Positions 14,014 to 59,639 of a DNA stretch of 64,000 nt are shown one piece after another; the first letter of the stretch is position 1; every line of letters begins with the position of its first letter. This DNA is from an uncultured bacterium. GTDB taxonomy: Bacteria; Omnitrophota; Omnitrophia; Omnitrophales; Aquincolibacteriaceae. The DNA lies in contig CAZLTL010000006.1 of NCBI GenBank assembly GCA_964562525.1, positions 31,187 through 95,186 on the forward strand, given 5' to 3'. Under the pieces are notes generated by a model that was given only the letters and a program-made list of their open reading frames with translations, had not been told where the DNA came from and did no database searches. The position numbers and the translations under genes were made by a program.

Positions 14014-17000
14014 CAGACCGGAGACCGGAGGTCGGAGGGCAGAGTGACTCAGAGCTCCGGACCCCGGACTTAGGCCTATTAAAAGCTTGGCGCGATCAAA
14101 TCATCCGTGATTTATCGGATATGGGGAAGGTGAATCGCGCGGCCTGGTACACACGGTTTATGGATGAAGTGGTGGACGAAAGCCTGAAGCACACCGATGC
14201 CGACAAGCTGATGATCAAAGTCGACAATTTTATCCGCGGTTTGCGCGGACTTGAGAAGAACAATCAAATTGATCAGGCAAATATAGCGGATTTACTCAAG
14301 GCAAGTATGGCGTCACCTGCTGTTACTTCCCCAGCTGTTGTCGGTACCCCGCTGTCGTTTCCGGTTAATCCCGCAAGTGAAGTTACCATGCAAGAAGCAT
14401 GGGCTAGCGTCCGGGAGTCTCTTCCTGTCGCCATAATTAATGCTTCTCCAGCAGATAATACGCAGTTGCAAGAGCAGGTGACGACGATTCAGGCAAATGA
14501 GCCAATTAATTACAGTGGACTCTCAGCTGAGTTTGATGCAGCAGCTATTAAGCAAACGGCCTTACTTAGCAATTTGGTTCGGCGGGTCTCAAGTATTACC
14601 GATGCAGATTTGGAGTATGAGTGGAATGAAATGGGACGACTTCTTCGTTTGGTGAACGGGATGAAAGGAGAGCCCGACCCGCGAGATCCGGAAGCAATTT
14701 TTGGTTCTGAAGAGCGCAATTTTAAACTACCGGTTGCAATGCGTTCCAAAATTGTGCGCAGTTTGAGTGAGCGAATTCAGTTTAAGTTGGCATGGACGCA
14801 TGCTGTAAATACATTTTTGAACGATGCTGAAGGTGTATCCAAGTTGGCAAGCCGGGCTGCCCCTGCATTAAGAGAGAGTAATGATGAGGGCGCGGCTGTT
14901 GAATTTGAAGTTTTGTCTCCTGGACAATTAACGGACGAAGAATTCTACCGTACTCTTTTGGGCGACAACGGAACCGTGAGCAATGGGTTGATTGGTTCGG
15001 GAAATTTAGTAGCAGCTTTTCGACTTGTTACTCAGAAAATGGCCGTCATGATCAAGGCCGGACCCGAAGGAGTTCCCGGTGGATCAAGAGAGCTAATCAA
15101 GCGCGTTCATGCCTTAGATGGAGTCGCTAAAATGATCCGCGATGAAATTACAACAATGCAGCGCTCCGAAGCGCGGGTTAATGAAAATGCGCCGACAGAT
15201 CAGGCGGCACGGGAGGAAGCGCTTGCAACTGATGAGAAGCTGAAAAGGCTTGATGTCACGACTTTCTTTAAAGAGATCCTTAAATCGGAATGGAAGTGGT
15301 TGTTGGTTGGTTTTGTTTTATTAATTTTGAGCACCATGCTCTACGACTTAGTCGCTGTTACTACGGTCGCGCAATTTTTTTTAAAATCTCTGGGGGTGGG
15401 TGTTGGTTTCTCTTGGGGTGCGATTTTGCTGTTCAATCCTTTGACAGTGCTTACCCATGAATTAGGGCATTTTCTAACCTACCGATTAGTTGGCGGTAAA
15501 TCCGATAACACGTTTGGTTTTAATAGGCACTCCTACTTTTTCAATGCAGATGACATATATAAACTCCCCATATGGAAAGTTCGGATTGTGGATATGGGTG
15601 GGCTTGTGATCAACACAGCTATTTTTGCCACAATTGGTCTTATTTCGTATCTTACTTTGGGCGCGACCCCTGTTCTTATTGCTCTCGCTGGACTTCAACT
15701 TGCTGAATTTATAATGGCTTCCGGTGATTATGAGAAATTCTTCAATGCCAGAGGGTATCAGGCTTTGAGCCTTGATATTGCAAAGTTTCAGGAAGAGATC
15801 AAAAATTACAAACCTGAATTTCATGCAGATGGCACGCGAATATCGGCTGAAGCTGATCGCCCTTTGGATGAGCAAACTCAACGCGAAGCACGGGTGGATA
15901 AAACAGAAGAGGCTTTGAGAAGTGGGGCGTTAACAGTTGAAGGGAAAACGGCGGTTTTTGGCCCTCAGGCGAATAAAGATTTTGCGATAGGAGTAAGCCC
16001 GGAAGTTTCATTTGTGGATTTAGATAAAGCCGATTTTGTAACGAAAGCAGAAACATTTCTCTTTCAATCGCTTTTCTTTGCGGCGGCTTTTTTAAAAATC
16101 CCTGTTGGGAAAGAGCAGAAATTAAATACTTACAAGGAAGTATTTGAAGCGCTTCAAAATGCCAAAGCCGCGGTCAAAAATGCCGGTGGCTTAAGCTTGT
16201 ATGCTGCCCAAGAAAAATTAAAAGAAGCCCAAGCTGAAAAAGATGAGTTTGTGGCTGAAGCTCAAAAGAGAGGTTTTGCCGAGTTTTTGCTTCCGGGTGG
16301 AATTCTAAGCCGCCGCATGGAGATTTTTGTTCCCAATGAAAATCAGCGCGAACGGCTTTTAAAGTATTTAACCTTAACTTTTGTAGGGCAAAGTAAGGAA
16401 TCGCTGCTCTCAGACATTCTGAAAGTGCAGCAAAAATTAGGAGTCACTTTTGATCCGGCGGTTCTTGAGCAGCTTTTAGCCGAGTTTGAATCAAAGCGCA
16501 GCTTCATGTTTCCCGGGGGAGTTTTTGCCGGGAAAATGGATGCAGAGATTCAAGATATTTTTGGTCAATTTATTCAGGTGAAAGTTTTAAGTCAAACCCA
16601 AAGTGTTTCAAGCCCCTCAGTTGGAAATATTCAGCTCAATCTTTCAGGTGCGTTGGTTATGGGGGCAGGCCAATCTGAAGTCGCTGTGGATTGGGATCAA
16701 GTTTTACAGTCAGGAGAATTGGCTCCGGCATGGTCTGAAGCTTTTACTGCACAGCTCAAGAAGGCGCTCATCTTTAAAGATGGGAAACTGCGTGTGTTTA
16801 ATCTCGGGACAGGCGACCCCACCCCGTTTAGCCAGAATCAAGATTACACACATATGGCATTTATTGTGAATGGGAAAATGATTGTTACCGATCCGTCCAT
16901 TCGCAGTATTCGTAATCTTGAGCGTTTGGGATTTTTGGAAAAAGTTGAGGCAATTCATCTGACCCATGTTCACTTTGACCATGTAGGTGGCATTTTAGAT

Positions 17001-20000
17001 ATAGCGCGCCGTAAACTCAAAAAATCGGAATCCTTGCCTAAGCTTAAGCTGGTTATGCCGACTGTTGTTGCGCTGCAACTCGAAAGAACTCTTGCTTATA
17101 ACTTTTCCACGATGGCTGATGATTCAAATTATGATTTCAGCCAGCTTGCGCTGGTCAGCGAACTTTTCGATTATCGGGGACCTGAGAAAATCAATAAAAC
17201 GATAGAAATTTCCCAATTACAAGAATCTGCAGAGTTTAAAGGTGTTCAAATTGAACTTGCACCAACGTTTGGACACCCGATTCCAACCTACGGAGTCAAA
17301 TTGATTACTCAAGAGGGTTTGAAGATAGCCTATTTGTCCGATTCAGTGATGCCAACCCCAACGATTAAAGCAGCGGATGGAAAGGCAATCCCTAATCCTC
17401 GATATTCGGAGTTTGTAAGTTACTATGCGGATTCAGATATATTGATTGCTGAAAATGGCGTGCCGGGCGTGCATATTACTCCCGAGCAGCTTGCCGAGGC
17501 TTTCCCTGAGCATATTAATAACGGAACTCTGTTTACTGTTCATTCGTCGGGTCCCCAAGCTCAAAAAGGGTTAATTCGATTTATGCCGGGCATGATCTTG
17601 TCTCCGCTTCAATCGAATCAAAGAAAGCAAGATGTTCAGCAAAGTGCAGCGACGCTCATTGAGAATGAAGCTATTCGAGATTTTTTAAAGTTAAATTTAG
17701 AGTTAGCCCAAGAACTTTCGAGTATGGGAACGAAGGTTTCATTTTCTGAGGGGGAAGTTCTTTTTCAGCAAGGCAACCCGGTTTATGACTTTGATCATGT
17801 TTATATTTCTTTATCCGGCGAAACAATCGTTGAGGGGCCCGGTGCAAAGCGGCTTCCTTCGATTGGAGCTGGGAGATTAATCGGTGAAATGGCGCTTTTG
17901 ACTAAGGCTTTGACGCAAGAACAATATGACCAGATCATGGTAGCCATCGGGAAGGGTAAGGATACGGCAGCGCTCGATTTTTTTGGGAGAGTGACTTACG
18001 ATTTGGTAATCGAAGGGCAGCCTCCTTATCGCATTGTGAATCCAAGTTTTGACTTAGAAATAGAAGCGAAGGAATTGACGGAGGATCAAAAATCAAAGTT
18101 AAAGCCTGTCTTTGATATTGCAAAGTCAGGTAAACCCATTCCGCGATCGGTAACGGTTCGGGCAGGTGCGGGAGCAACTTATTTAGCGATTCCCAAAGAT
18201 GCTTTTTTACAGTTTTTAACACGAATTGATGCGTCAAAAATCGATTCGAGTCGACAAGCATTCATTTCAGCTATTTACGCACAAATTGGCATCAATCTTG
18301 ATTCTCGAAAAAAGATGAGTGAGTTAGCCACTCCCACTCAGAACGAAACAGATGTGGTAAAGGCATCAGCTGATACGTCAGTTCGCTCCGAAGCGCGCGC
18401 GGATGTTGAATGGTTTAACTGGCGCGTGGACAAACAAGGCAATCCAGTTTCGAATGCCGGGCCTATGAGCGAGCTTGTCACTTTGAATGTTGGTGACAGT
18501 ATCTACTTTGAGGTTCCAAAAAATAAGCCGGGTTTGATCGACTATTACTACCAAGTCGGAATGGAGGGCGAGAATTTTACTTTTCAGCGCTATGAACAAA
18601 GCGGGTCTGTTGCTCAACCTGCTGGTAAGAAAATCGAAATTCCCCGATCACTGCAAACGGATAAGGCCGCTAAAAACAGTGATAACTATCTATTTAGTTT
18701 TCAAGTTAATAATGGAAAACTAATGGTGAGTTCAGGCCAGAAATATGGCTTGCTAAAAAGTAAGGTTAAAAAAGACGGAGCGATTGGTGATAGTAAACCG
18801 AGCGTGCGACGAAAAAAATTTGACGATGCCGCTCGGTCTTATCGTGAAGCATTATCAAAAACAGATTTCCCCAGGTTGAGAAGTTTGTCAGCTGAATTAG
18901 ATGAAAAAATGGACGAAATTTTGGGGGTGGCTACGAATGGTTTATTTCTAATACCGCTTGGTTGGCTTGAAGGACGAATCAAAGAAATGGATGCGGGGTT
19001 GCGTCGAATTGAGAGACATGAGTTATCGGGTCAGGGTAAAGAAGCTTTGGGCTGGGCGATGCAGGTGCTGACGGAACAAATCAATCATTTTCGAAATTCT
19101 GTTGTTGCTGTTAATTTAGAACTCAATCTTTTGACCCAAGGAGAGAAAATTAATTACGATGTTTTTAGTGAGTTGATAGAGAGCTTTCTTCAAACCAACA
19201 GCTTATTTGCATTATCTCAAGAGTTGAATGTTCGCATGCAGTCCTACCCTGAGACAATTGAGTTCAGTTTAAAAAATGTCGATGCCGATTCAAAGATTTC
19301 TGCGCTTAAAAGGCGAATTTTCGATTATGGGCAAGCAACGGCTACTTTGACGCGTCTTGAAGACGCTCGAATATTTTTTGAGAACAGCTGGAAATTGTAT
19401 GATGATCTTGTTGGGTTGATTCAGCAAATGGCATTAGAAATTCAAAGACGTGATGAAACCGAAATGACGATTGAAAGAGGTGCTGAGGCAGCAAAAGAAC
19501 AGCGCAATCAGCTTTGGCGGAGTATTGATTATTATGAAGTGCTAGGTGTTTCTCGAGATGCTTCTCTAGGGGACATAAAAAATGCTTATCGCAGTTTAGT
19601 TCGCGCGGGTAATCATCCGGATAAGGTCGCAGGCGACTCTGCTACGCTAAAAGCAGCTGAAGAGAGATTTAAAGAAATAGGACCGGCATATGAGGTCTTA
19701 AGTAATGAAGTAGACCGCGCTGAATATGACAAAATTCATTTTGCCCGTTCCGAAGCTCGTTCGGTAGACTCAGGGCAAGCGCGGGACTCGTATGAGCGCT
19801 ACAAGCTTTTATCAGGGACTTTGGCAGATTTACCTGACCCTGTATTTGTCAACGATGGGGAAACGATTACTTTGCGGATTCCGCATGATGAAGTCGAAGG
19901 TAGTCAGCCCGAGCTTGATCTTTTGGTTGTATTCAAAAAATTTAATGGGAAGGTGTTTTTTGCCCACCTAGATTCATTTTCAGACTTATCAATGCTTGAT

Positions 20001-23000
20001 GAATATTACCGTTCTGCTGATCCTCTTCAGGAAGGTTCTCGAATCAAATGGGAAGAGGTGAACGAGACTTCAGAAGTTGAGATTATAGGTCGTGAGGAGG
20101 AAATGGATAGTGAGGGTACCAAGGTCAAGATTGTTTTTAGTGAACAGGGTTTTACGATTGCCAATGCCTCGATCTCGGATGTTTATTATTTTGAGGGTAA
20201 GCCCGGTCCGGAAATTATTGCTTCCGCTCTTCGGGATAGTTATCTTTCAAGTGCGAGCACAGGTTTGCCCATAGCCACCGAGCCAATTTTTATTGCCGGG
20301 GAGGATGCAACTGAAATTTTTAACTTGGTCACTGAGTTTATTAATCAGGGTCCGTATGTTCCTGCTGCAGGCGAAACCGCTCTCTACACAAAGGTGAAAC
20401 AACAAATTAGGTTGATTACCGAAAGAACCGGCGAAAAGTATCGATTCAACCCGATGATTCAAATAAATGCCTTAAGTGATACTTATAGAGCTTTAAACAA
20501 TTTTCTCATGAATCGATTTACTGACCTGGAAGGCTTGGAAAAAGGTGTGGTCATTCTCAAGCGAATTCCTAATCTTGAGAAGCTGATCGAAGTTTTAAGA
20601 CATTTAATATCAGCTTACGAGCTGGCTTTTAATCACCTTGAGAATTCAACTATTGAGATCGAGGTGGATGAAAAAGAAAACCATCGGCGTCATGCCTTGC
20701 AAATGCTGGTTGAGTTAAAAAAGATTGTTAATTCATATGATTCAATTCCTCCTGCCGAACGACCGCGGGCTGAAATCCAAGGAGAAGTTCGAATGGCAAG
20801 GTTGCCCAGCCAAAAAAACTTTTCCGAGTTCATTTCTTACAATGGCGATAAAATTCCACTTTGGGCAATTAAAAGAATTTATCTGCCGGATAATAGGGTT
20901 ATTCAATTTGGTGAGATTTCTCAGGCTAATAACGAGGATGGTGTGTATGATCGGGAGGATCGCACGAGAGACGTTAGGAATGCCTTGTCACCATTTCCAG
21001 AGAGTGCGGAGATCGTTTTTGAGCTGCAAGATGGCGTTTTATTAAAGCGAATTTTGGAAGCGGAAGAGTATGAGACGATAACGGCAGTCTATCCGGTTGA
21101 TTTTGACCCCAAAGAATTTAGCAGGCTTCCGCACGGAATAGATTTACCGGAGCGGCGGTTTATAAATGCAGTTAACGTGAACGGGTTTATTACCACCCTT
21201 TATGAGTTGGAATCTCTTTTGCCTGAGACTGGGTTAGCCGGCAGGACAGTGACTTTTTTCTATTCCGCGAATAACCATCTTCAAGCCTTCAAAATCAGTG
21301 ATGAAGCTAAACCTCAGTCTGAGCAATATGTTTACTCTCAGTTTCGAAATTCAAGCAATGTTCAGCCTATGTCCGCGCCTTTTTCTGCTCAGGAAACTCA
21401 AGAAATTGCAAAAAAGGATTTGGTTGACCTATTTGCGGATCTCTTTAATCGCCGTGCGTTGACCTCCGCGCAGAGGGTGGTTCCGTTGAGCGCGCTTATT
21501 CTTCAATTTTTGGCTGTCTCGCTTAACGCTAAGGCTGTTTCAGATTGGGCTCAGGAAGGCAAAGTTCCGCTGTTTGAAGTTGAGTTGGCGAACGAACAAA
21601 CCATTTCATTCAGCGGGCTTAATCCTGCTTTACATCACGATGATGCCGTGCGGATTGAAAGACTGCTATCTCAGATTGACGGGGGATTGGATGCCGCTTC
21701 TTTTCGAATTGTTTTGGCGCCTGCTGGACCGGCTACCCAGTCGAATCAAGCGGGGCAATTTTTTGATCGACCCGGGCGTGGTTTGGATGAGTTCAATGCC
21801 TGGCATAAGTTATCTGATGTCTTGGAACTGTTTTTTCTGTCAGTGGGCGAAACTGGCAAAGACAAGAAATTGGATGCTGCGTCAAAACAAAAACTTTTAG
21901 ATAAACTCGCCGTGCTTGTTGAGGCGATAGCCATGATTCATCCTTCAGTAACAGGAAGTGAAATTTATCATACTTTATATGCTGTCATGGATGCTTCAAT
22001 GTTTAGGGCTAAAAAACTAGATACAGGCAGCAGAATCAATGTTTTGATTAATTTGGCGCGCCAAATCAGAGCCGCTGCGCCTCAAGATCCTCAACAGAGC
22101 ATTTATGTGCAAGGTGAGTTTGAATCAAAATTAAAGACCCCAAACTTAGATCTAAATGAATTGGCAAAAGAGACTGCCCGCTCCGAAGCCCGTTCGGCAG
22201 ACTCAGGGCAAGCGCGGGAGGCTGAGGCGGTTGCGGGAGATGTGTTTGGCTTTTTTAAATCGCCCGCGGATTATTCTGCAGACCAGATAAATACTTTGGC
22301 AGATGAAATTGATACATTGGCTGATAAACAAGGGCTTGATGTTTTTGTGAATCTCTTGCGATCGATAGCTCGAGACTTAGCTGTCGTTAGTGTTCAGGGG
22401 AGCGAAAATATTTTAAGCAAAGAAGCGACAAGTTTTGCCGTGAAACTTTTTGTTGGACGCATGATGGCAGCAAAGCGGCAGTCGACTTTAATAGATGTAA
22501 AAATCGAGAAGCCAACCATTGCTTTAGCATTAAAATTGAATGATGCCCAAAAAGCTTCTCTGGGAGATAAGTTGTCCAGCGAATTGGCTGAAATTCTGGG
22601 TGCGGTTCAGATTGAGGCCAAAGATTTTAAAGAATTAGGTGCGTTTTTTAAGAGCGTAGGGGTTTTAGTGACAACGATTGATCCCGATCTAGCAAACGCA
22701 GTTGTATTAGAAAGTTTTGGTGCGGATTGGAGTGGTTTACCTGCCGTGGGTGTCTTAGAAGAATCGCAGCAATTTGATTCGGAGTTAGAAGGGATGCGTA
22801 TTTATTTGCAGCTTTTGATCGCGGCTTATTTAGCTCGGAGCTTTCCGGATAAGAAAGTAATTTTGACACCCGAGATTGTTGGCGAGATTAATAAGCTGCT
22901 GTTTCAATCTGATGCAGGGCAAGAAGGAATTGTGCAGATACAAAATGGTCAGTTAGTTGTTAAACGAAGCAGTCTGCTGGCATATATTCAAACCTTATTC

Positions 23001-23033
23001 GCGGCGCAATCTGCCGTTGCAGTCGCCGCGTAA
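12435..23033 (+). CDS. Giant modular protein A (3,532 aa): signal peptide, head module, multi-enzyme cargo, tail module
   Basis: Uninterrupted 10.6-kb ORF. Recognisable in-frame motifs occur along its whole length (see the domain sub-features). Its N- and C-terminal modules are paralogous to the ORFs at 41847 and 45438. Confidence 0.85.
13179..13199 (+). repeat. In-frame heptamer triplet AGTCCGG CGACCGG AGGCGAG (encodes SPATGGE)
   Basis: Three 7-nt units (21 nt) inside the ORF A head module. Confidence 0.55.
14015..14070 (+). repeat. In-frame heptamer repeat with inverted arm (AGACCGG AGACCGG AGGTCGG ... CCGGACC CCGGACT)
   Basis: Direct reading of the sequence. The arms match as reverse complements at 11 of 14 positions. 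It encodes [18 protein letters not shown] at the end of the head module. Confidence 0.75.
15291..15755 (+). other. ORF A cargo: M50/S2P-like intramembrane metalloprotease-like module
   Basis: Several hydrophobic helices. HELGH (15456-15470) lies within a predicted TM segment ([18 protein letters not shown]), as in site-2 protease/M50 families. A downstream MASGDYEKF may supply the acidic ligand. Confidence 0.55.
16786..17560 (+). other. ORF A cargo: metallo-beta-lactamase-fold hydrolase domain
   Basis: The HxHxDH signature [10 protein letters not shown] is at 16965-16982. Downstream are His/Asp positions (TFGHP, YLSDS, TVHSS). Confidence 0.75.
17650..18230 (+). other. ORF A cargo: cyclic-nucleotide-binding (CAP_ED-like) domain with a large internal insertion
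   Basis: [30 protein letters not shown]...[12 protein letters not shown], then about 75 aa, then [26 protein letters not shown]. Confidence 0.65.
19527..19742 (+). other. ORF A cargo: J-domain (DnaJ N-terminal domain)
   Basis: [34 protein letters not shown]...[23 protein letters not shown], with the HPD tripeptide at 19614-19622. Confidence 0.85.
22179..23030 (+). other. ORF A tail module (shared with ORFs B and C)
   Basis: It starts at the last RSEAR motif and ends ...[38 protein letters not shown]. Compare B ...EDGIEKAGKNWRITKPSLSRLKDIWQRFQAALQVMQSA* and C ...EQEGVGRYKLTNNSLVLYLETILADIEALLATAQSA*. Confidence 0.6.
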
Positions 23034-23073
23034 TCTTTTCCTTATCAGCACCACAAGTCCCGGGTTGGTTTTG

Positions 23074-23108
23074 GTCGTTGGTCTCTAGTCGTTAGTCTTT
23101 AGTCTGTG
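23074..23108. repeat. Intergenic heptamer tandem array (GTCGTTG GTCTCTA GTCGTTA GTCTTTA GTCTGTG) between ORF A and ftsW
   Basis: Five 7-nt units. The reverse-complement units (TAACGAC, CAACGAC) are the same unit seen in frame at 42670 and 46658. Confidence 0.75.
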
Positions 23109-23122
23109 GTATTATCTGCTCC

Positions 23123-24229: not shown

Positions 24230-24233
24230 CCCG

Positions 24234-27611: not shown

Positions 27612-27621
27612 TTTATTTTTT

Positions 27622-28542: not shown

Positions 28543-28586
28543 ATACGAGGAGCTCCGACTGCGGTTTGCGGGAGTGGGATTGAAAA

Positions 28587-30645: not shown

Positions 30646-30667
30646 AGTCTACTTTTTTGGAGCTTTC

Positions 30668-31285: not shown

Positions 31286-31287
31286 TT

Positions 31288-39462: not shown

Positions 39463-39467
39463 ATTCC

Positions 39468-45272: not shown

Positions 45273-45283
45273 TGTTGTTACCC

Positions 45284-45310: not shown

Positions 45311-45437
45311 AGGGAGCATTGGCGAGCAGAATATAACAGAGGGAAGCGTTTCTAATGGCTGTAGGAATGTTTGTTTGATTTACAAATTTTAATAATGTAT
45401 TGTTCTCAGAAAATTATAGAGGTTTATAAAGGTTTTA

Positions 45438-51400: not shown

Positions 51401-54400
51401 GACTGCGGAGGAAACTTTTATTTTTAAGAATGGCTCAGCCTCAACATTAGCCGCATTGCGCGCCGCAGGCTTAGGGACATACTTAAGTCGCTCAGATTTA
51501 TTTACGCAGCAAAATGTTTCGGCCAATTCTTTTGCAGAGGAACGCGAAAAAATGGAATCAGCTATGTCGGCAATTCCACTGCCGTTACGCCTTTTGTTCT
51601 TGCTGGCAATCATGATTGATACCGATAACTTTAAAAACGACAGTACGGTTAAACCTGTTGATATTTTGGTTTATGAGAGTTTACAGAAGTCTTTATCCGC
51701 CGGGCTGGTTTCCTTTTCTGAATTGATTCCTTACCGTGATCTTATTAAAGATTTTTTGTCGAATTATCACCTCAAAAAAGATTTTTTGCAGGATGATTCC
51801 GCTCGTTCAGTCGCAGAGGTCGATGCTCACAATCGCAAGGCCCTCGTGGACTTAATTTTAAAAGGGGATAAGAAGAAATTTCTCACAGCGGATGGGCAGC
51901 CTTTTCTTTTTTCGAGCATTGATCTTTCTTCTGTTTCTGACCTTCCGAGGATTCGTACTGTGCTTGAACTTGCCCTTCAGGATGTGTTTAACCAAGTTAT
52001 TCGTAATTATGGAACAGGTCAAGATGGCAGCTCAGCTGGGGCGGAGCAATATGCTTTTGTCGTAGTTCGTTTTGCTTTTTGGGGCGATCAAAAGGTTGAA
52101 ATTCACACCATGCGAAAAAACTTAACCGCAAATCAACCGGGGATAGATGGGCAGGCTTTGGCAAACTTTATGCAGGCCGCGATGACGACGAATGGCCAAC
52201 CACCCCTTTCAGGCACTTCGCACAAACATGGTTTTGTTTTGCTCCCGGCGACATGGATGCAGCGTAAGCAACTTTCCGGTTTATTGGAAAATTATAAAAA
52301 CCCTGAAAAAGAGACTCGCCGTTCTGAAAGCCGCGCCGGTTATATTTCGAGAAGAACTGCGATTTTTGGGGGATTGATGGCATTGTCCTCTTATTTTGTT
52401 CCTTCGTCATTAGTGGCAGAGCAAAATGCGCAAAAATGGCGTGATGGCGAAAGGCTCATGCACGGTTTAGGCGCTTGGGGTGTTGTCGCGGGCGAGTACG
52501 GCGACACCGATGCTAGTCACATGATTTATCGCGGCCAATCTTTATCTGAAATTAAAATTAGTTTTGATACAAGACGAGGACATGCTCCGCAGGCCGTAAG
52601 CATCAATGCGAATGGCGCCATTCGCGGGCATGCGGTGCAACCAGGAAGAAACGACGGTCTTGCCTCTACTTTTTATCTTCTTCGGTATCACGATGAAAAG
52701 GGCGTTTTACATGACAGCGCTTTGATTCAGAAATTGTTAGGAGTTAAAACACAAGAAGGAAAGCTTGTGTTGGATGTTGAGTTAGGCGACCGCGAAAAGG
52801 GTGCCTCCCGTTGGAAGACTATGAATGCCCAAATTGTTATTTATCCTCCCGATCGTGTTGATGGGACGTTGCGGATGGATATCCACCGCTCTGCTCCTCA
52901 GGGTTTGAAAGTGTCTCAAGAAAAATTAGGTTTAATGGAAGGTCTCATGACGGAATTTATCGCTACGAACCATAGCGGTGCGGATTCTGACTTTGATGGC
53001 AGAGAGTATTCAGATGCTCAGGCAGCTCAATTTTATGATGACAAAGGAAAACTTGTTCTCGATCGAGATTTGAAAAAGGCGCGTGATGAGGTTCCTTCTG
53101 ATTCGGGTTTCAGACTTATAACCGCGGAAGGGGATGATTGGATGCCGAAGAAAATAGGGGGTATAGCGGCTTTTGCGGTGGTAAGTGAAAAACATTCACC
53201 GGCGCACCAATTTAAGCGCATGCCTATTCCTCCGACGATGTTGGTTGTGCCGCATCAAGGATTTTATTTGGCATCAGGTGCGGTGACTTATCGGAAAGGC
53301 GAAACCAATTTTAATTCGGATAATGTGAATGTTACGGTTCAACCCGAAGATGTTGAGGCGGCTTTAAGTAAACCATCATCGGTTTCGGTTTTCTTTATGC
53401 CCGGCGCGACACCTGAATCAGAGAAGCGTATTCCGGCTATGATTCAGTCTGTGCGTCGCTCCGAAGTTCGAGGGGATCAGGACAGGCAATTGGGTGGAGC
53501 AATTTCATTTCCGATTATTATTGGTTTGCTAGGTTCGTTCACCGCCGGCGTTTATGTTTCGATGCTTACACCCGCAATCGCCGGACTCGCTGCGGCGGCC
53601 CTATTCTTTTTACCGATTTATGCTGGCGCACGCTTTTTTTGGCGGACGGTTGTGGAGGGAAAGAATTTTCCATTTCAAAATCTTCAAGACGCCTTTTTGT
53701 GGGAATCGAAACTATTGGCACGCGTTTTATCAAAGAATTGGTCTGAGATTAAACTTTGGATTTTTATGCGAAAAACGCTTTCCGCCGAAGAGATGAGGAA
53801 TCAATTTGATGAGCTCAGCTCTTGGGGGTTAATCCAATCGGACGTGGATGCTTCCTTTTCGGATTCTAAAGATTCTCTCAAGATTCGATTTAAGCTTTTA
53901 AGCTTAGATTCGGAAGAATCGGCCGCAACATCGTCTCATAGCTTGAGTATATCGCGCATTTTTGCCGATGGTGAGCGCGTTTATTTTGAATATTACGATG
54001 ATTCACAATCTCCGGCACGCTACCGCTATCGTATTTTTGATCAAAGCAATTTAAAGAGTGCTGCCGAAGATTTAAGCGCAAACGACTATCGCGCCCAATA
54101 TCGTTCAATTGCCGCACTACATCGATCTGTTCCAACAAGTTTTCTGGATGTCATGAATGATCATAATGAGAGCCCGAGACGCTGGAGCCTTTTGTTTTAT
54201 CCGCTTGTGATTGCGTTTGCAGTATTTGCAGGCTATCAGTATGTGGGAGCTGATGTGATGGACTGGATTTCGCTCTGGCATGATGTGCGATCATCTTATG
54301 TGAAGTTGTTATCGCCGCTTTCCGTTGAAGCGGTGATGGGTATTGGGGTTTTATCTTTGGCAGGTATTGTTCTAGCTTTATTCATTGTTGATCGGGTTTT

Positions 54401-57400
54401 TCTTTTTCTTCAAACATTGATATTTATGATTGCCTCGCTTCCGGCAACTTTGGTCTATGCACTTATTTATTATTCGCGCGTTCCCGATTTAATTTATTTT
54501 GCGTTTTCAAAAAGTGGCAAGCTCAAGCCGACACTTCTGAATAAGCTGGTTAATTTATCGGTTGGTTTGGATGAAATGGAACCCGAGGAACCTGAGTTCG
54601 GAGAAGAGGAAAAATCTGCCCTGATTCGTGAGCAAATAACTCAAACACTTTCAAGTTACGAGATTGGCGTTGATGATCAAATTACTTATTTTGGGAATGA
54701 TCGCCGCTTGGCAAATGAGTTGGCAGCATTTCAGCCCGATACCTATGTTGTTATTTCTCCTGAAAGTGAAAATCTCTCCCAAATTGAAATTGATTTAACG
54801 GCCCCATTTGATGGCGAGGGCATTTGGGAAAGAGCGACCGATAAAACAATTGTTTTTTTTGATGATCACGCCCAAGAAACATTTACCTTTGTGAATGAAT
54901 TGGATTTTAGCCGCGACCAGGTTGTGATTATCGACCCGGACGTTGAAGTGACTTGGGATGAACTGAATGCCTTTTTAACTCAGACGACAGGGACTGGTCT
55001 GATCGTTGGTCATCGCAGTTCCTTTCCGGAAAACTGGGAAAATTTGCTGGGGGATGACGAGCGTTTTGAGGTGCTTGAGGCTGATGATATTGTCACTATT
55101 CACATGAACGATATCAATCGTTCTGAAACACGTTTACAAAAAGCATCATTGCAAATCGTTGACGCGCTTCAAGGCTACGCAAATTGGCTTTCAACATCAG
55201 AGTATGATTTAAGCGCTTCCGCGGTGCGCAAGCAACCTCAACGACTGCGTGAAATAGGTGCTTTTATGGTTTTAGGCAATCCGGATGCTAAAACATTTAT
55301 TGAGTTTGCTAAAGGCTGGTATGAGATTGCTCAAAAAGTTCAGCGCCAAATTCCGATTGTCATAGCCGGAGGCATTGGCAGGGGAACAATAGGTTTGATT
55401 GATACGACGCTTGAGCACTATAGGCAATTAGGACGTTTGAATCCCGCAGAGGAAAAACTTTTGCTCAAAATGCGTTCTCAGGTTGAAAGTTATCTTGAAG
55501 CGAAGGCGTCTGCCGCGATTGCCCGATCAAAACAGCCTGAACATCCCGGTGTGACGGAAAAAAATGTCATCATGTTTATTTTTGCCAAAGAAGGTGTTGG
55601 GCGTTTTGCGTCTCAGCCAGGCAAAGTCGAAGCTTTTGACCCCAGACAGAATTACACCGGGGCTCCGGTGTATTTTGAAAATGGAAACTCGACAAACACT
55701 CCTGAGAACTTTGAGTTTTCCAAGCCTGTTTTTGAATCATTGGTTCAAGAGGGTTTGATTCTGCCTAATCAGAAAACTGTCATTGTGACCGAACCCGCGC
55801 TTTTGGCGAGAATTAAACCTACTTTGCTTTATGTTGCAAAGGAAAAGGGCTGGCAAGGAGATATGAATTGGCCGCGCGCGCGGGTTTATCCGCTTGATTT
55901 AAAAAAGCTGTTTAAGCCGAATAGCATGACTGCGGAAAACGCACAGCGGTTGCTGGATAAAATTCTTTATTGGGCCGGGCCCTCTAAGCGCATGATCGAA
56001 ATGTTTCCCGACTCCGCAAAGAATGTGAGTGAGCTTAAAAAATATGCAGACCAGTATTGGGGGGCTATTTCTGATGGCGGGCTTGACTTTAAAGTGCCCG
56101 TAGAAAAGCTGCGTGAGCGCGTGCCTGAGTACTCAGCTGCGGAAGGCTTGATTCAATCCACATTGATGGCAACCGATGAGTTTCTAGATGCTTTGAGTGA
56201 AGCCAGTTACAAAATTGAATTCGATACGTTGAACCGCACTTTTACGGTCACCGCCCGATCTGAGTCGCGAATGCTTGGAAAAGATAGTTTAATCACCACC
56301 GCAAAAATGACTTTTGAGAATGCTTTGGCCATGGTGAAGCGACGCGGTTCGGATGCGATTACAGATGAGACAGTGAGATTAGCCGAAAACTATCATCGTA
56401 CCCCAGAAGCATGGATCATTGCGAATGAAGAGGAACGCCGCTATGCCGAGCGGCTCTCTTCGATGACTTTGGCGGAAATGAAGGAACATGCTGAAGACAA
56501 AACAAATCCGATTTACGGAGAATTAAACAAATACCGAGGCTTCGATTCAATTGTCAATTATCTCAGTAACGTTCAGGCCCGTCGCGGCGGACAATCGCTT
56601 TCCATTGCGCAACGCTGGATCGATATCCTTACCCAAAGTAACCCGGAAGTTATGGCACAATTTTTTGAGGGTGACCCCGATAATAAGGCGTTGCAAAACT
56701 TGCGTTTTTACCGAGCGTTTTTGCGTGAAATGATTTACCGTTGGGACACCAATGAGAAACCGCGTTCCGCAGAATTGTTTAATGCTCGTTCCGAAATGCG
56801 TTTAGCGGACGAAGATCGCGCTGCCCTTGAGCAATCACTTTCGGAGCTGATGAAATATTTGTCGCAAGGACGCGTTTACCGCATGACACCGGGAATGAAA
56901 GCCTTTGAAATGGACGAGTCATCACGGCCAATGGCTTGGGATGAAATCGCTAATTTGCCTGAGGACTATTTGCCGGATGCAGTTTTATATTTTGGCAGCC
57001 GTGATGATCAGGTTCCGCAGCTTTCGATACCGGTTTTACAAAAAATGATCGCGCGTAAACCTGATTTGAAGATTGTGACCACCGGCAAATGGAGTGATAC
57101 GCATACGGAACTGGCCGGAAACTTCAAAGATGAGTCCGGCGCGCGGATTTCCGAGGCTGAGCATTTTGCCCGCATTCTCGAAAGAGAGTTGGCAATTCAA
57201 GTCGAGCGCGAATCCAATTCAACCAATACCGGACAAAATATTTCGATGGGGCGGGAAAAGTTGACCCAAGCCGGAGTTGATACAAAAAATATTAAACTAT
57301 TGGTTGTCGCTCAGCCGGCGCATCAGCGCCGTGTCGGCGCTTCGGTGTTGAAGCAATGGCTGAAGCCCGAAGAGCTTGCGGGAGGAGACTATCAATTGCA

Positions 57401-59639
57401 TGTGATTTCGGCAACACCGCGAGAGTTAGAGAAAAAAGATATCGAGATGCTCACGGATGATGAGCTTTTGGCGTTAACTGAGATTGCTTTGGGGGAAATC
57501 AAGCGAATTTATAATTATCCCGCTTCCGGATTTACGGTGCCTGTGGATGTTCCTGCGGAAGTGAATGGGGCTGAAACCAATTTAAATCTGCTGGTGGCAA
57601 AAGTCGGAAGACTGAGTCAGCGTGCTGAGCTGCCCAAGCCGACGCTTGATTTTGAATCTTTAAAGACCGAGGTTAATCAAGGCACTTATAACGCGCTTTC
57701 CGATATTCGTGACGCAATTCAAACGACGAATCTGCCTCTCGAAATGATTCTTTTTGGGTCTTATGCGGATGGGTATCAAATATCCGGCAGCGATTTAGAT
57801 TTAATGTTTAATGCCTCCATCCGCGGGTATGAGTCACAGGCAGAATCTGTCAGTCGTCGAATCATAGATCATTTGATGCAGCTTGGTTATCGGTTTGATT
57901 TGAAGCATCATGCTGCGGGCGGTGTGCTGCCATCCGTTATGCATACGACGCCCGCTGATTTTGTTGAGGCGCGCGGTCCCGGAAAATTTTTCCGTAAGGA
58001 AGAAAATAAAACCGCGTGGATTGTTTCTGCTTCTTCCGTCCGCCGCATTAATTTATTGAACGGCGATGTTCAGATTTATCAGTTTGCCCGCTCCGAAATG
58101 CGGGATGTGCCCAATTGGAAGGCGCTCGGTGCGGCGGAACAAGTTAAAACGCTTTTGTATCCCGGCAGCGGAGTTGATTTTTCCGCGGGATTGAGTTTAG
58201 CGCTGCAGCTGCCGAACCTGACTGATATTTATTATGTTGATCCCGCGTATTCAAGCCAGCAATTGCCTGAACGAAAGGCTGAAAAAGGTTATCACTATTA
58301 TCTTTATGATATTTTGGCGAATGTGGATTCGCGATATTTCTTTTCTGCCCGTGAACCGTTCTCAATGGAGGAAATTATAGCGTTTCAAAAGCAATTTGCT
58401 CAAACCGGTAAGGTCGCTATACCTATTATCTTGCCTGATTCGGGCGGACGAACGATCAATATTCATCTTGTCGCAAGTCTGTTTGAGACGGGATTTCAGT
58501 CCAAAATAGGTATTCCGGAGCAGGTTGATTTTATTCTTGTGAAAAACCCGGGTACGAATCGTCGATTGAGCCAAGAGCCTTCTTATTGGAATCAAGTTGT
58601 TGAATCTGTGCAGCCGAATGGAATTGTGGCGGTGACTTTTGCCGAGATTCCGGGTCAGGGAGTTGATTTTAAGCCGGTTCGTGATGCTCTTGGCGAGCCT
58701 CTTTTTAAATCAAGTGAATTTTCGGGACAAGGTTTGGTTTGGGCGGGACAGTGGGTTGTTTATCAGAAAAAAGACACCCGGACTGAGATTCGACGGTCAG
58801 AATTAACATTGGGAACTCGGATACAGGTACCAACTCCTGAGTTATCCCCAGCTTTTGAGAAGGTGTATGAAGCGTTGATGCTGAAGTTGAATGAACTGAC
58901 TACTGTCGAAGAAACGGCGGCGGTGATTGCTTATGGCTTTACAAACTCATCCCTCGGCCGCGAAAAGCAAGTTGCTATGTTAACTGCCCTCGTAGGACTT
59001 ATCGGCGTGAGCCGTTTCGAGATAATACAGAAGGTGATGCGTGAAAAGCATGCCGATGCTTGGGGCCGCCTGCAATCCATGGTTCGCTCGCCATCTAAAA
59101 ACCGTGTCATCTATCGAACGATTGATGCGGCGCAATTATCCGATGCGAAACTTCGTGAAGCATTGTTGAACGGAATGAAAGCCGTGTGGCTTGTGAACCC
59201 CAATCAAAAATTTCATTTACTTGCGGATGCCGATGTTTCGCAAGACGTTTTGAATCGGTTGGATTCAGATGTTAAGTCTTGGAAGTCTCAACTCGAAATC
59301 AAAGCGGATAATTTTGGTATTCAAGCTCGCGCTGATTTTGCTCTAAAGGCGAATGCGGATAGTTTTGTTTTTAGTACGACACGAGAAGAATTGCTCAATG
59401 ACCGCATGGCTTTGCCGGTGCATGAGTCTTTTTCGCAAAATGAACCTGATTATCTTGAAGCCGCGATTTTAGCTTTGGCAAATCTAGCTCAACAAGGTTC
59501 GCTGGTTGATCGCTTACTGCCCGGATTTGAGCAAGAGGGGGTAGGGCGTTATAAGTTAACCAATAATAGTCTTGTTCTTTATCTTGAAACAATTTTGGCT
59601 GATATCGAAGCGCTTCTGGCAACAGCCCAATCCGCTTAG
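45438..59639 (+). CDS. Giant modular protein C (4,733 aa): signal peptide, head module, long multi-enzyme cargo, tail module
   Basis: Uninterrupted 14.2-kb ORF with in-frame domain motifs throughout. The head is paralogous to ORFs A and B. The tail ends ...LLATAQSA*. Confidence 0.85.
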   Translation: MRNSSWLKFTAGVFTFLFVLNDIGQAAPALDFAASLRSEIPRVSHIEIPPEMATLEDWYESPNVGDTRLMLHIQDAHAQPEAQARIRDLIHYLNKQYGFKTVFVEGAAEQLDVKWLHPFKNSEQNKKWIEEKTSSGEMSGVDLALLDGVAGLKALPIETIEGYRDGYQKLHAVYTAEPEVNEFINFFDSKLDSAASKILNEKTRRILSEWKKFESGHRDFLPFVEKLAALAKEDLKLDLDALYSQIEWPQLSRLLVLQRVEKELAEAVPTGQRSKVKGQSHNSKPVSWREQALDEKEIVLNLLKDEQASSGLIHGLERFDEKHLNLNRITVGDGRQFSSPRALVEQLVEETRKFEIDLRDYLAFLKYAGYLILRGELQPSLLFKEIERLFEKFLEKTNDPSAELRASQRLTTNAGEDVQREAQSVKLIEIYRDSFLLKKLLNLELSREEWRKALAKREELEPQKILGRLKNLGAAVHGPRATANEKKITNLEPRTTENQDVERTFENAFDFYDAALAREDIFFEKISSSLAQNDKAILITGGFHSEGMNAFFREKEISYGTLTPRITNLAPTSLYRSAMMQATNLSKVSSQPTPALAQPLETIAAMTALSVVAVRSESRLQTEAADFVQWVEDLKLVRDPNNAAEIETVLLRHRDLFKHRPDEFPEESVSFRGRNLQKIPSRLIHQLDLTWLNGRNSDAKPITRNDLFQLVFDRPLDENEAKGFAGYDNIQSLRDLFYFLITKEHGRSLQLFAEQYFALDSGQRELFLEQAFDIHQITQYLMGQMARNDDYEVSDEILTAYAKAWPIVIQFGEAELQSGGILKRLKTVPDLPVDIDLRSNQDSGQEVILEDWERALLLLENYVEIGDESIDTQIGVVSLGLRSLAGDQATEVRWSRASSLERAVAVRLEGTLPLSREEANRYLRWLEVADSDLNGLDQAKLFEPNRLVLIGKIASLREQIVARQLQSESREDERDRGMARSELRTVEIDGVTANWEIVENLLLGDPGKFDAAFEFEKDEEVYLKIKPANFKQQQDLTEAGFESENPNWVKSLVDDAQLLTYVVGAQPKIRAYLVQDKSRNTTGLNQIEFDAGGVVRPKGDKGISASRLNEAGQLITFIPQVFVLTKAGVLPGRFKTLSEKDEIERVAAERLAAEQENLRAVQRSTAALKEIQDRMSALAASMESESAWSFVPQSIPNIDREEIADSDDLKLIRARSQMISEDLNSLRIAWQQATDTQKKWDRLLRDWASAYDKINKESSKLAGLNFQSIAVNLQSRREALNKIETYLESLVRIMGSFQAKKAEFESKLQAEKERKRAEIERVRFESSQRRGAFWDRVNRWGPFGLIAFAAMALIWFLGIREKTVAPEVRLSQPEMMDYSLQGLPQGILDAMQRNRQNLKWTPQEVLLQLQTLISKHVTDELDLGPMTIAGFPKDFDQLEVVNPPKDAYSIVIPGVQFYQAEFIPKLNNKPIKQFQQMVVSVETVRGAKVFYAQDTIVQVGEWLLSLAGDSISSAESLRMGAYIAQEFAGTTFGLEQIDHWLAKNGASQAPSPLLRGQVDLPVTYFIAKELEGLLSSDSPFVEPFRELEKQLNGGQGNVSASGKILTALIISVYADSKLYLEKISVDEQKKIFDALSRELVPLVNQNGVGVEVAALERLRGSITFRMASQTQMLSAGLRNGSITSEQAVLLWNQLMGLEEENILAIVGYLNQKNIPQAAKLSGFVKSYFENARALSQDPDGVRYIREQVELRMRMGTELLHKSEQTKPAGRSEMREFGELVERVISHTHSDGANKDQRKNLVDFFRMMSRGYQQEFLAELQHQAQGQPARKKIKIVLSHENPDPDAIISVIGEAYAQWAALSDQEKDKTLVMPLLYGEVPANTLYLIQMLERLLKNDTVPDEQEYGGMLMLRGPPAISGKTAPGTILDLLLIISTNASQQDLFQPSGAIELTLIDFNPSIAPKDLDPLMPAIVRTLDHHIQNVEKAPNMTAEETFIFKNGSASTLAALRAAGLGTYLSRSDLFTQQNVSANSFAEEREKMESAMSAIPLPLRLLFLLAIMIDTDNFKNDSTVKPVDILVYESLQKSLSAGLVSFSELIPYRDLIKDFLSNYHLKKDFLQDDSARSVAEVDAHNRKALVDLILKGDKKKFLTADGQPFLFSSIDLSSVSDLPRIRTVLELALQDVFNQVIRNYGTGQDGSSAGAEQYAFVVVRFAFWGDQKVEIHTMRKNLTANQPGIDGQALANFMQAAMTTNGQPPLSGTSHKHGFVLLPATWMQRKQLSGLLENYKNPEKETRRSESRAGYISRRTAIFGGLMALSSYFVPSSLVAEQNAQKWRDGERLMHGLGAWGVVAGEYGDTDASHMIYRGQSLSEIKISFDTRRGHAPQAVSINANGAIRGHAVQPGRNDGLASTFYLLRYHDEKGVLHDSALIQKLLGVKTQEGKLVLDVELGDREKGASRWKTMNAQIVIYPPDRVDGTLRMDIHRSAPQGLKVSQEKLGLMEGLMTEFIATNHSGADSDFDGREYSDAQAAQFYDDKGKLVLDRDLKKARDEVPSDSGFRLITAEGDDWMPKKIGGIAAFAVVSEKHSPAHQFKRMPIPPTMLVVPHQGFYLASGAVTYRKGETNFNSDNVNVTVQPEDVEAALSKPSSVSVFFMPGATPESEKRIPAMIQSVRRSEVRGDQDRQLGGAISFPIIIGLLGSFTAGVYVSMLTPAIAGLAAAALFFLPIYAGARFFWRTVVEGKNFPFQNLQDAFLWESKLLARVLSKNWSEIKLWIFMRKTLSAEEMRNQFDELSSWGLIQSDVDASFSDSKDSLKIRFKLLSLDSEESAATSSHSLSISRIFADGERVYFEYYDDSQSPARYRYRIFDQSNLKSAAEDLSANDYRAQYRSIAALHRSVPTSFLDVMNDHNESPRRWSLLFYPLVIAFAVFAGYQYVGADVMDWISLWHDVRSSYVKLLSPLSVEAVMGIGVLSLAGIVLALFIVDRVFLFLQTLIFMIASLPATLVYALIYYSRVPDLIYFAFSKSGKLKPTLLNKLVNLSVGLDEMEPEEPEFGEEEKSALIREQITQTLSSYEIGVDDQITYFGNDRRLANELAAFQPDTYVVISPESENLSQIEIDLTAPFDGEGIWERATDKTIVFFDDHAQETFTFVNELDFSRDQVVIIDPDVEVTWDELNAFLTQTTGTGLIVGHRSSFPENWENLLGDDERFEVLEADDIVTIHMNDINRSETRLQKASLQIVDALQGYANWLSTSEYDLSASAVRKQPQRLREIGAFMVLGNPDAKTFIEFAKGWYEIAQKVQRQIPIVIAGGIGRGTIGLIDTTLEHYRQLGRLNPAEEKLLLKMRSQVESYLEAKASAAIARSKQPEHPGVTEKNVIMFIFAKEGVGRFASQPGKVEAFDPRQNYTGAPVYFENGNSTNTPENFEFSKPVFESLVQEGLILPNQKTVIVTEPALLARIKPTLLYVAKEKGWQGDMNWPRARVYPLDLKKLFKPNSMTAENAQRLLDKILYWAGPSKRMIEMFPDSAKNVSELKKYADQYWGAISDGGLDFKVPVEKLRERVPEYSAAEGLIQSTLMATDEFLDALSEASYKIEFDTLNRTFTVTARSESRMLGKDSLITTAKMTFENALAMVKRRGSDAITDETVRLAENYHRTPEAWIIANEEERRYAERLSSMTLAEMKEHAEDKTNPIYGELNKYRGFDSIVNYLSNVQARRGGQSLSIAQRWIDILTQSNPEVMAQFFEGDPDNKALQNLRFYRAFLREMIYRWDTNEKPRSAELFNARSEMRLADEDRAALEQSLSELMKYLSQGRVYRMTPGMKAFEMDESSRPMAWDEIANLPEDYLPDAVLYFGSRDDQVPQLSIPVLQKMIARKPDLKIVTTGKWSDTHTELAGNFKDESGARISEAEHFARILERELAIQVERESNSTNTGQNISMGREKLTQAGVDTKNIKLLVVAQPAHQRRVGASVLKQWLKPEELAGGDYQLHVISATPRELEKKDIEMLTDDELLALTEIALGEIKRIYNYPASGFTVPVDVPAEVNGAETNLNLLVAKVGRLSQRAELPKPTLDFESLKTEVNQGTYNALSDIRDAIQTTNLPLEMILFGSYADGYQISGSDLDLMFNASIRGYESQAESVSRRIIDHLMQLGYRFDLKHHAAGGVLPSVMHTTPADFVEARGPGKFFRKEENKTAWIVSASSVRRINLLNGDVQIYQFARSEMRDVPNWKALGAAEQVKTLLYPGSGVDFSAGLSLALQLPNLTDIYYVDPAYSSQQLPERKAEKGYHYYLYDILANVDSRYFFSAREPFSMEEIIAFQKQFAQTGKVAIPIILPDSGGRTINIHLVASLFETGFQSKIGIPEQVDFILVKNPGTNRRLSQEPSYWNQVVESVQPNGIVAVTFAEIPGQGVDFKPVRDALGEPLFKSSEFSGQGLVWAGQWVVYQKKDTRTEIRRSELTLGTRIQVPTPELSPAFEKVYEALMLKLNELTTVEETAAVIAYGFTNSSLGREKQVAMLTALVGLIGVSRFEIIQKVMREKHADAWGRLQSMVRSPSKNRVIYRTIDAAQLSDAKLREALLNGMKAVWLVNPNQKFHLLADADVSQDVLNRLDSDVKSWKSQLEIKADNFGIQARADFALKANADSFVFSTTREELLNDRMALPVHESFSQNEPDYLEAAILALANLAQQGSLVDRLLPGFEQEGVGRYKLTNNSLVLYLETILADIEALLATAQSA
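46255..46284 (+). repeat. In-frame heptamer triplet GGTCAAA AGTCAAA GGTCAAA followed by GCCATAACT
   Basis: Directly follows LLVLQRVEKEL(AEAVPTGQ). TCAAAGCCATAACT (46271-46284) is identical to 10891-10904 in the mraY-murD spacer element. Confidence 0.75.
46658..46678 (+). repeat. In-frame heptamer triplet CCAACGA CTAACGA CTAACGC
   Basis: Encodes QRLTTNA. It lies in a segment absent from the ORF B head at the equivalent position. Confidence 0.7.
46862..46882 (+). repeat. In-frame heptamer triplet GGTCCAC GGTCCAC GAGCCAC
   Basis: Encodes VHGPRAT. It lies in a segment absent from the ORF B head at the equivalent position. Confidence 0.7.
50925..51665 (+). other. ORF C cargo: DHH-family [15 protein letters not shown] domain
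   Basis: Motif I SHENPDPDAI, motif II LIDFNPS, motif III LDHH (DHH at 51363-51371), motif IV MIDTDNF. Confidence 0.75.
55260..55820 (+). other. ORF C cargo: DUF218/YdcF-like module 1
   Basis: FMVLGNPD...IVIAGGIGRG...ENGNSTNTPENF...VIVTEPALLARI follows the DUF218 pattern (VLG...sGG...E..S.nT.eN...lVT..H..R). The final His is not conserved. Confidence 0.45.
56979..57355 (+). other. ORF C cargo: DUF218/YdcF-like module 2
   Basis: VLYFGSRDD...IVTTGKW...SEAEHFARIL...ERESNSTNTGQNI...LLVVAQPAHQRRV closely follows the DUF218 signature. Confidence 0.6.
57738..57818 (+). other. ORF C cargo: Pol-beta-superfamily nucleotidyltransferase core motif
   Basis: LEMILFGSYADGYQISGSDLDLMFNAS matches hG[GS]x9-13 D-h-[DE]-h. 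Confidence 0.65.
58794..59636 (+). other. ORF C tail module (shared with A and B)
   Basis: It starts at the degenerate motif RRSELT. AAVIAYGFTNSS...MLTALVGL parallels B AVAILITYGFISD...LAILASLAV. The C-terminal approximately 40 aa follow the pattern EGhx...SL...QSA*. Confidence 0.6.

Follow-up and report, generated by a model that had tools for sequence, protein, structure and literature searches.

What purpose does a five-residue motif serve that recurs along very long and otherwise largely dissimilar proteins? This question is raised by a 64,000-nucleotide stretch of DNA, referred to as the window in the following, from an uncultured bacterium of the phylum Omnitrophota (Omnitrophales, Aquincolibacteriaceae; assembly GCA_964562525.1, contig CAZLTL010000006.1, forward-strand positions 31,187 to 95,186). 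It encodes three proteins, A, B and C, whose mutual homology is confined to the first 500–590 residues; this N-terminal region holds a typical Sec signal peptide and, behind it, a domain of about 560 residues, which we call the head. Downstream of the head, the three chains carry different modules and copies of the pentapeptide Arg-Ser-Glu-x-Arg (RSExR), in which the initial annotation of this DNA saw either a polyprotein processing site or a conserved inter-module linker. We find that RSExR marks inter-module junctions throughout a large protein family, and we assign a probability of roughly 0.55 to the reading that these junctions are processing sites of secreted polyproteins.

The RSExR motif in the window and across the head family

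Translation of A, B and C returned all 14 RSExR copies that had been annotated, each at exactly the first nucleotide given for it (Table 1). From the composition of the three proteins, 0.17 copies would be expected; likewise, 2000 shuffles gave a mean of 0.19 and a maximum of 3, which bears out the proposed enrichment. Among all gapped 5-mers of the three proteins, RSE.R also shows by far the strongest over-representation, with 14 copies against 5 for the runner-up. As had been read by eye, no exact copy occurs in the other 26 open reading frames (ORFs) of the window (10,391 residues), and MurB indeed contains the similar RSEDLR, at 26943. A six-frame scan yielded a single additional RSExR, at 14029, in a frame other than those of A, B and C. 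The degenerate copies reported earlier (DSELR at 14046, RSELT at 58794 and, near 15876, QREAR) are all present, and a closer one, RTEIR, which had been overlooked, lies five codons upstream of RSELT.

With a word-indexed homologue search, the head of C finds only three proteins, and the family becomes visible only through a degenerate-pattern genome scan and an exhaustive profile search. The former, covering one genome per GTDB species, gave more than 500 head relatives, the best 80 of which were fetched as loci; these 80 all stem from Omnitrophota or uncultured bacteria, often with several in one genome. The latter, run against 1.84 billion cluster representatives, gave 9,304 proteins with E <= 1e-3, of which 5,801 reach E <= 1e-30. 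Among the 150 matches listed, the head sits at or near the N-terminus of proteins with total lengths of about 480 to 7,500 residues, and recorded relatives bear no annotation beyond ‘hypothetical’ or ‘DnaJ domain-containing protein’. Within the motif-bearing family, the heads are only 25–45% identical to each other, and 104 of 116 complete N-termini show a signal-peptide-like hydrophobic region.

The motif is as conspicuous in these relatives as in the window. The 67 head-bearing ORFs of the loci and the window contain 180 RSExR copies (3.0 expected), and 151 family representatives contain 493 in 390k residues. Nearly all copies lie downstream of the head, the first usually 55–250 residues past its GGFH motif. 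The annotation had put a copy 65–115 residues after GGFHxEG in each head, which is correct for B (95 residues) and C (74 residues), while A has only the degenerate DSELR at this place.

The motif admits Arg alone at position 1 and Glu alone at position 3, position 5 is Arg, and variants with Lys or Asp do not rise above background. The Ser of position 2 can clearly be exchanged for Ala (43 copies versus 4.3 expected) and, to a slight extent, for Pro. The residues found at x are A, V, L, S, M and T; charged and aromatic residues as well as Pro never occur there, nor is x ever rich in Gly. Some proteins use a substitute throughout, such as P0124 (15 RAExR and no RSExR) and P0090 (13 RAExR), while P0044 uses RPExR. 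The 20 residues to each side of the motif hold almost no information. Strict residues within uninformative flanks indicate a short linear motif, read by a macromolecular partner, rather than a piece of a folded domain. A function of x as an internal start codon was rejected, since the frequent Met, Val and Leu are matched in number by Ala, Ser and Thr. It is also unlikely that the motif Ser acts as an autoproteolytic nucleophile, because Ala replaces it in whole proteins (P0124).

The codons of the motif vary among the copies, as the initial annotation had stated; this variation is not fully random, however, since the first two codons are biased. In the 14 window sites and 240 further sites from loci L003–L082, the first Arg is encoded by CGY in 79% (background 43%) and by AGR in 3% (background 23%), and the Ser by TCN in 92% (background 66%), with TCC alone making up 50% (background 22%). 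The codons of Glu and of the last Arg match background usage. Altogether, the synonymous positions hold only 0.2–0.36 bit and the flanking DNA none, which led us to reject a DNA-level repeat as the main signal. The same figures bear on the idea that RSExR is a passive element, either a helix cap or salt-bridge staple of the linker or the DNA footprint of module-shuffling recombination. The nucleotide bias in the first two codons would fit a footprint, and so would the occurrence of the motif at recombination-like module borders. Nevertheless, we consider this explanation very unlikely, given how little synonymous information there is, the absence of Lys-for-Arg and Asp-for-Glu exchanges, which is stricter than the physics of a linker requires, and the retention of the motif even where heads share only about 25% identity.

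The motif is furthermore coupled to the head. In the fetched loci, head-bearing ORFs of at least 700 residues contain 293 R[SA]ExR sites in 186k residues, as opposed to about 2 sites in about 31k residues of headless ORFs of the same minimum length, several of which have 1,700–3,200 residues and no site at all. Not included in this headless count are two ORFs truncated at the 5' edge of their locus, which are probably the tail parts of head proteins encoded further upstream.

Large family members without RSExR have a motif of their own. De novo pattern counting revealed [AG]-[ASQ]-S-L-G, in the following [AG]xSLG, with 67 copies versus 2.6 expected, the first at about residues 590–620, right after the head, and later ones at module-scale spacing. 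Its carriers are P0104–P0111, P0117, P0119, P0123, P0137, P0138 and P0145 as well as head proteins of loci L055 and L080. In a dendrogram of the heads, the users of this motif fall into a single unbroken clade in which RSExR does not occur at all, and among the RSExR users SLG does not exceed background, so that the two types are mutually exclusive. Co-variation of the motif with the head clade would be expected of a protease and its site, although lineage-specific factors acting in trans would give the same pattern. Acidic positions conserved only in the RSExR clade are E60, D114, E240 and E321 (C numbering).

Position of the sites between modules

According to the initial annotation, the sites lie between recognisable domains, and we examined this by Pfam searches of the inter-motif segments. 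A site does directly follow the J domain (DnaJ, A residues 2365–2432; site A 2438), and an NTase domain precedes site C 4218, as described. The site said to follow the cNMP module, A 1984, is found 157 residues past the cNMP-binding domain, which, together with a metallo-beta-lactamase domain, precedes it. Behind A 910, where an M50-like module had been placed, there is a zincin/M50-like match, albeit a weak one (DUF3267, about residues 1004–1099, E = 0.011), and the DHH module reported behind another site likewise corresponds to a weak match (E = 0.007). The statement that a site precedes each DUF218 module holds in part: a good match (residues 3878–3978, E = 4.5e-7) follows C 3784 and a weak one C 3228, whereas segment C 2295–2673 has no Pfam match.

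Comparison between family members puts the placement on a firmer footing. When the parts behind the head are compared by BLAST between different members, the matches include 87 sites, as opposed to 230 +/- 12 if these matches are placed at random. A match that nevertheless runs across a site is usually paired with a site in the partner, no more than about 10 residues from the aligned position. A quarter of all match starts fall within 11 residues downstream of a site. Modules of A recur in P0096 in opposite order, and the alignments start or end at sites in both proteins. The median inter-site spacing is 243 residues, the size of a domain. As BLAST matches avoid the sites and swapped modules are bounded by them, it is statistically demonstrated that RSExR marks inter-module junctions, as had been proposed from the window.

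Two further features of the distribution may be mentioned. Close doublets are common, with 43 of 542 inter-site gaps measuring at most 25 residues, and a copy lies 3–13 residues from the C-terminus in P0121, P0024, P0025, P0143, P0030 and the L007 protein (site at residue 3818 of 3831), some of which may be truncated by contig ends.

The sites also lie in flexible linkers. In an AlphaFold model of full-length B, the head (residues 45–585) has a predicted local distance difference test (pLDDT) score above 90 and residues 586–621 one below 50; the RSEVR at 621–625 opens a short helix, which is followed by further disorder. In a model of C residues 1–680, the first site (RSESR, 615–619) is inside a low-confidence stretch (584–625). 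Thus, in both models, the first site is located in or at the end of a stretch of 35–40 residues with pLDDT below 50, straight after a confidently modelled head. Across 636 sites, hydrophobic content falls only within about 10 residues of the motif. Between site and head, 40–55% of the sites have no predicted transmembrane (TM) segment, such segments being sparse in the whole family. A parity test on TM segments, which asked whether sites share a single compartment, showed no bias relative to random positions, with TM prediction itself being crude.

A short linear motif in a linker need not be cut, and each module might instead carry one docking site, for the head, for a chaperone such as the adjacent tetratricopeptide repeat (TPR) protein, or for the export or sorting machinery, which would ensure ordered folding, translocation or assembly. 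Strict residues and uninformative flanks would suit any such binding motif, close doublets could raise avidity, a short helix begins at or right after the site in both models, and the TPR protein is a conserved neighbour. Docking, however, does not require exact placement at the borders of shuffled modules, and the exchange of the motif for an unrelated pentapeptide in a sister clade, with the positions retained, is a pattern known from proteases and their sites, though a co-evolving binder could match it. On balance, we regard an uncut docking site as unlikely.

Fold and putative active site of the head

The head has three invariant motifs, Q-[DN]-x-H, V-E-G-A and G-G-F-H-x-E-G. Neither the full head nor a core-only profile, from which the insertion described below was removed, has a meaningful match among Pfam and PDB sequences. 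A Foldseek search of the PDB with the full B model likewise gave no significant match, probably because the split core defeats local alignment. The C model, with which the B model agrees, predicts a six-stranded alpha/beta core in which a helical insertion of about 370 residues separates strand 4 from strand 5. With its parallel beta-sheet, the predicted fold resembles solved members of the TIKI/TraB/ChaN/Ere group: 2rad (Ere family, Bcr136-type; score 9.8), 6xcq (EreC; 9.2), 8bqs_DQ (TraB family protein; 9.1), 2g5g (ChaN; 9.0), 5t09 (HopBA1; 8.9), 2qgm (Ere family; 8.7), 5w6l (RRSP; rank 10, 7.8) and 2ebf (PMT; 6.7).

Four residues of the head (H77, E105, E158 and H544, numbered as in C) are conserved almost without exception, each in at least 150 of 151 sequences, and according to predicted secondary structure the invariant residues sit at the ends of core strands. 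Descriptions of the TIKI family mention two GxxH motifs. The second of these is present in the head as G-G-F-H, while the first is replaced by Q-[DN]-x-H, which lacks the Gly and is neither G-x-x-H nor E-x-H. The head's structural matches are structures that have been listed as a TIKI superfamily with a catalytic set of two His and two Glu, in which His3902/Glu3930 of RRSP correspond to His85/Glu113 of Bcr135 (PMC6254334). In the head, too, residues of this catalytic type, two His and two Glu, follow beta-strands, and the first invariant His is separated from the Glu of V-E-G by 28 residues in A, B and C, exactly as in H3902/E3930 and H85/E113 (PMC6254334). We have drawn the equivalence to RRSP and Bcr135 from this spacing and from the strand ends. 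There are differences as well: the second Glu of the head (E158) is on another strand than E3900 of RRSP, the core is split by the long insertion, and the head is fused ahead of multi-module chains. Since the superfamily includes the sequence-specific endopeptidases RRSP and Tiki (PMC6254334), the modelled head is a plausible site-specific hydrolase and a candidate protease.

Putative processing, related systems and genomic surroundings

Processing accounts best for these data, because strict residues with uninformative flanks, flexible linkers, the restriction to head-bearing proteins and the alternative motif of a sister clade come together. The most likely enzyme for the putative cutting is the head itself, which we put forward with less confidence than the processing. 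Equally tentative is the wider proposal of a phylum-wide polyprotein system, in which an exported N-terminal protease of the TIKI/Ere fold would free shuffled modules at strict pentapeptides that differ by clade, with RSExR used in most lineages and [AG]xSLG in one other. In such a system, the precursor would be exported through Sec and the head would fold after export; it would then recognise and cut linkers of the form R-[S>A>P]-E-[AVLSMT]-R, either within its own chain (in cis) or in a paralogous one (in trans), whereby the individual enzyme modules would be released. B is built of a signal peptide, the head, the disordered linker with RSEVR, a TM hairpin (residues 679–739) and a tail with an alpha/beta domain, and its conserved relatives form a group of roughly 1000–1250 residues with a head and one short tail. 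These B-type proteins, the conserved core of the family, may be membrane-anchored processors of giant paralogues, for instance of C, which is encoded just downstream.

Several points weigh against the processing reading or against the part of the head in it. In A and C, several sites are located beyond predicted TM segments and may not share a compartment with the exported head, and DnaJ, cNMP-binding, metallo-beta-lactamase and NTase modules are typical cytoplasmic domains. In the AlphaFold models, the motif is not docked into the head, the site region being of low confidence in both. No head column separates the RSExR and SLG clades cleanly at 75% conservation in both. The superfamily includes esterases and haem-binding proteins, so that the fold does not imply a protease, and many B-type members keep the invariant head residues and lack the motif, so that self-processing cannot be the sole role of the head. 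Finally, none of the sampled genomes has both motif types, and the match between motif and head clade could follow the organismal lineage together with a separate protease acting in trans.

Such a protease might be the M48/HtpX-like or the MA-clan one encoded downstream, or another envelope protease, and the head would then be employed otherwise, as an esterase or a hydrolase acting on prey or envelope, in export or in anchoring. Besides the B-type proteins, the possible tracking of organism phylogeny and the fact that not all Ere/ChaN/TraB-fold members are proteases, this alternative can invoke a gene order (PcrA, head, TPR, PlsC, EEP, M48, MA_2) that is kept in at least seven loci. Yet M48 and MA_2 are syntenic only beside the B/C-type locus of fairly close relatives, and most of the 80 loci are without them. 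A general trans protease would also not explain why the motif occurs almost exclusively in proteins with a head in cis and is virtually absent from their large headless neighbours. We therefore rate processing by a separate protease as rather unlikely. Regarding the candidates named by the initial annotation, the head has gained support through its TIKI/Ere/ChaN fold and its invariant two His and two Glu, the M48 and MA peptidases have been weakened by their limited synteny, and the embedded M50-like module of A was rejected as a general protease, as it is not family-general.

Chains that carry their own processing enzyme are known from other systems. MARTX toxins of Vibrio are arrays of effector domains that are released by an internal cysteine protease domain. 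The head proteins resemble them as giant exported chains of unrelated enzymatic modules with short inter-module linker sites, a repertoire that is shuffled between relatives and a processing enzyme in the same chain, which in A, B and C would be the putative activity of the head. Unlike MARTX toxins, they lack both RTX repeats and the C80 cysteine protease domain, as judged from Pfam scans of A, B, C and every inter-motif segment, and their candidate protease is N-terminal and of the TIKI/Ere fold; moreover, they come from uncultured Omnitrophota, for which activation by a host factor is not known. The processing sites of MARTX toxins are also looser and follow a Leu, whereas RSExR is a strict pentapeptide. 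The 3C-like proteases of picornaviruses and nidoviruses, in turn, cut at a short conserved motif between mature proteins. With such viral polyproteins, the head family shares one short motif per junction, its position in linkers and its variation by clade with the linked enzyme domain. It differs in that Omnitrophota are cellular and have hundreds of paralogous and orthologous genes, with shuffled metabolic and signalling modules in place of a fixed replication set, and in that its cleavage is putative. Hence, we rate the architecture of a polyprotein or multi-effector chain with an in-chain protease as known, and the head family and its site motifs as new.

Giant proteins of Omnitrophota have been described as ‘Archaeovorins’, as dockerin-type and as a multi-enzyme class (bioRxiv 10.1101/2023.11.21.568195; 10.64898/2026.06.07.730766). 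Both preprints raise the possibility of chain cleavage, call the cleavage points unknown and propose C39 or S8 peptidase domains for it (10.1101/2023.11.21.568195; 10.64898/2026.06.07.730766), and a Nature Microbiology paper on these proteins likewise discusses C39/S8 cleavage. The head proteins belong to the same phylum and to the same kind of long, signal-peptide-bearing multi-enzyme protein, with 0.5–7.5 thousand residues as compared to >10–80 thousand in the preprints. Neither the head domain nor the junction motif is mentioned in these three works, and in the literature searched we found neither a paper combining Omnitrophota with ‘polyprotein’ nor a prior description of the motif or the head family. 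RSExR is the first concrete candidate for the cut points of Omnitrophota giant proteins. As a junction motif, it also supplies a rule for splitting giants into modules for structure prediction, and head and motif together identify the family. If the head is a protease, it would be a new sequence-specific endopeptidase of the TIKI/Ere superfamily with a five-residue site, and its use would amount to a polyprotein strategy new to cellular organisms. The whole system, if true, would be the bacterial equivalent of how viruses process their polyproteins, spread across thousands of gene families, and would provide the missing rule by which giants are cut into functional units; the protease-site pair could possibly serve as a tool, and the motif switch between clades as a natural experiment in protease-substrate co-evolution.

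Table 1. Features of the window; positions count from its first nucleotide, and residue numbers are those of the respective protein.
Feature	Position	Strand	Residues and remarks
ORF A	12435-23033	+	3532 aa; signal peptide, head, 4 further modules delimited by RSEAR
Head of A	12435-13950	+	degenerate DSELR (14046) just after
Putative catalytic residues, A	H75 12657-12659; E103 12741-12743; H459 13809-13811	+	
RSEAR	15162-15176	+	A 910
DUF3267/M50-like match	15444-15731		in A, membrane-embedded stretch
Metallo-beta-lactamase and cNMP-binding domains	16845-17915		A 1471-1827
RSEAR	18384-18398	+	A 1984
RSEAR	19746-19760	+	A 2438; 6 aa past DnaJ domain end
RSEAR	22179-22193	+	A 3249
ORF B	41847-45272	+	1141 aa
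Head of B	41847-43601	+	
Putative catalytic residues, B	H80 42084-42086; E108 42168-42170; H529 43431-43433	+	
RSEVR	43707-43721	+	B 621; end of disordered linker 586-621, start of short helix
ORF C	45438-59639	+	4733 aa; signal peptide, head, 9 further modules delimited by RSExR
Head of C	45438-47192	+	1-585; model confident for 41-580
Putative catalytic residues, C	H77 45666-45668; E105 45750-45752; H544 47067-47069	+	E158 also invariant
RSESR	47280-47294	+	C 615; within linker of pLDDT <50 (584-625)
RSELR	48375-48389	+	C 980
RSEMR	50745-50759	+	C 1770
RSESR	52320-52334	+	C 2295
RSEVR	53457-53471	+	C 2674
RSETR	55119-55133	+	C 3228
RSESR	56256-56270	+	C 3607
RSEMR	56787-56801	+	C 3784
RSEMR	58089-58103	+	C 4218
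Degenerate doublet RTEIR-RSELT	58779-58808	+	C 4448-4457
murD	10984-12237		upstream of A
ftsW	23123-24229		downstream of A
End of dcw cluster, MlaC-family and HpnN-like genes	28587-33684		MlaC-family 30668-31285; HpnN-like 31288-33684
Stretch assigned to the conserved gene order	59652-64000		
Last window ORF	63025-64000		TPR repeats

The genes for B and C are part of a conserved order, which comprises PcrA, one or more head proteins, the TPR protein on the opposite strand, a PlsC-type acyltransferase, an Exo_endo_phos protein, an M48 peptidase and a homologue of the last window ORF. Apart from the window, it is found in loci L001, L006, L010, L014, L030, L031 and L034. The copy of the last gene in L001 matches Peptidase_MA_2, while that of the window yields only TPR repeats. 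Head proteins in the PcrA-linked slot range from 935 to more than 3800 residues, and this slot is a hot spot of module gain and loss. In locus UBA2337, PcrA is 96% identical to that of the window, which therefore stems from this species or a near relative; an exact look-up of the B sequence returned no identical record.

The gene for A, with a length of 10.6 kb, interrupts the cell-wall and division (dcw) cluster between murD and ftsW. This cluster extends through ftsQ and ftsA and is followed by a gene of the MlaC family and an HpnN-like RND transporter, with no ftsZ after ftsA within the window. Within A itself, the weak zincin/M50-like match lies in its membrane-embedded stretch directly after the first RSEAR, and the metallo-beta-lactamase domain stands beside the cNMP-binding domain in a single module and has a weak match to the anti-Pycsar cyclic-nucleotide phosphodiesterase Apyc1 (E = 2.5e-4, below the Pfam cut-off).

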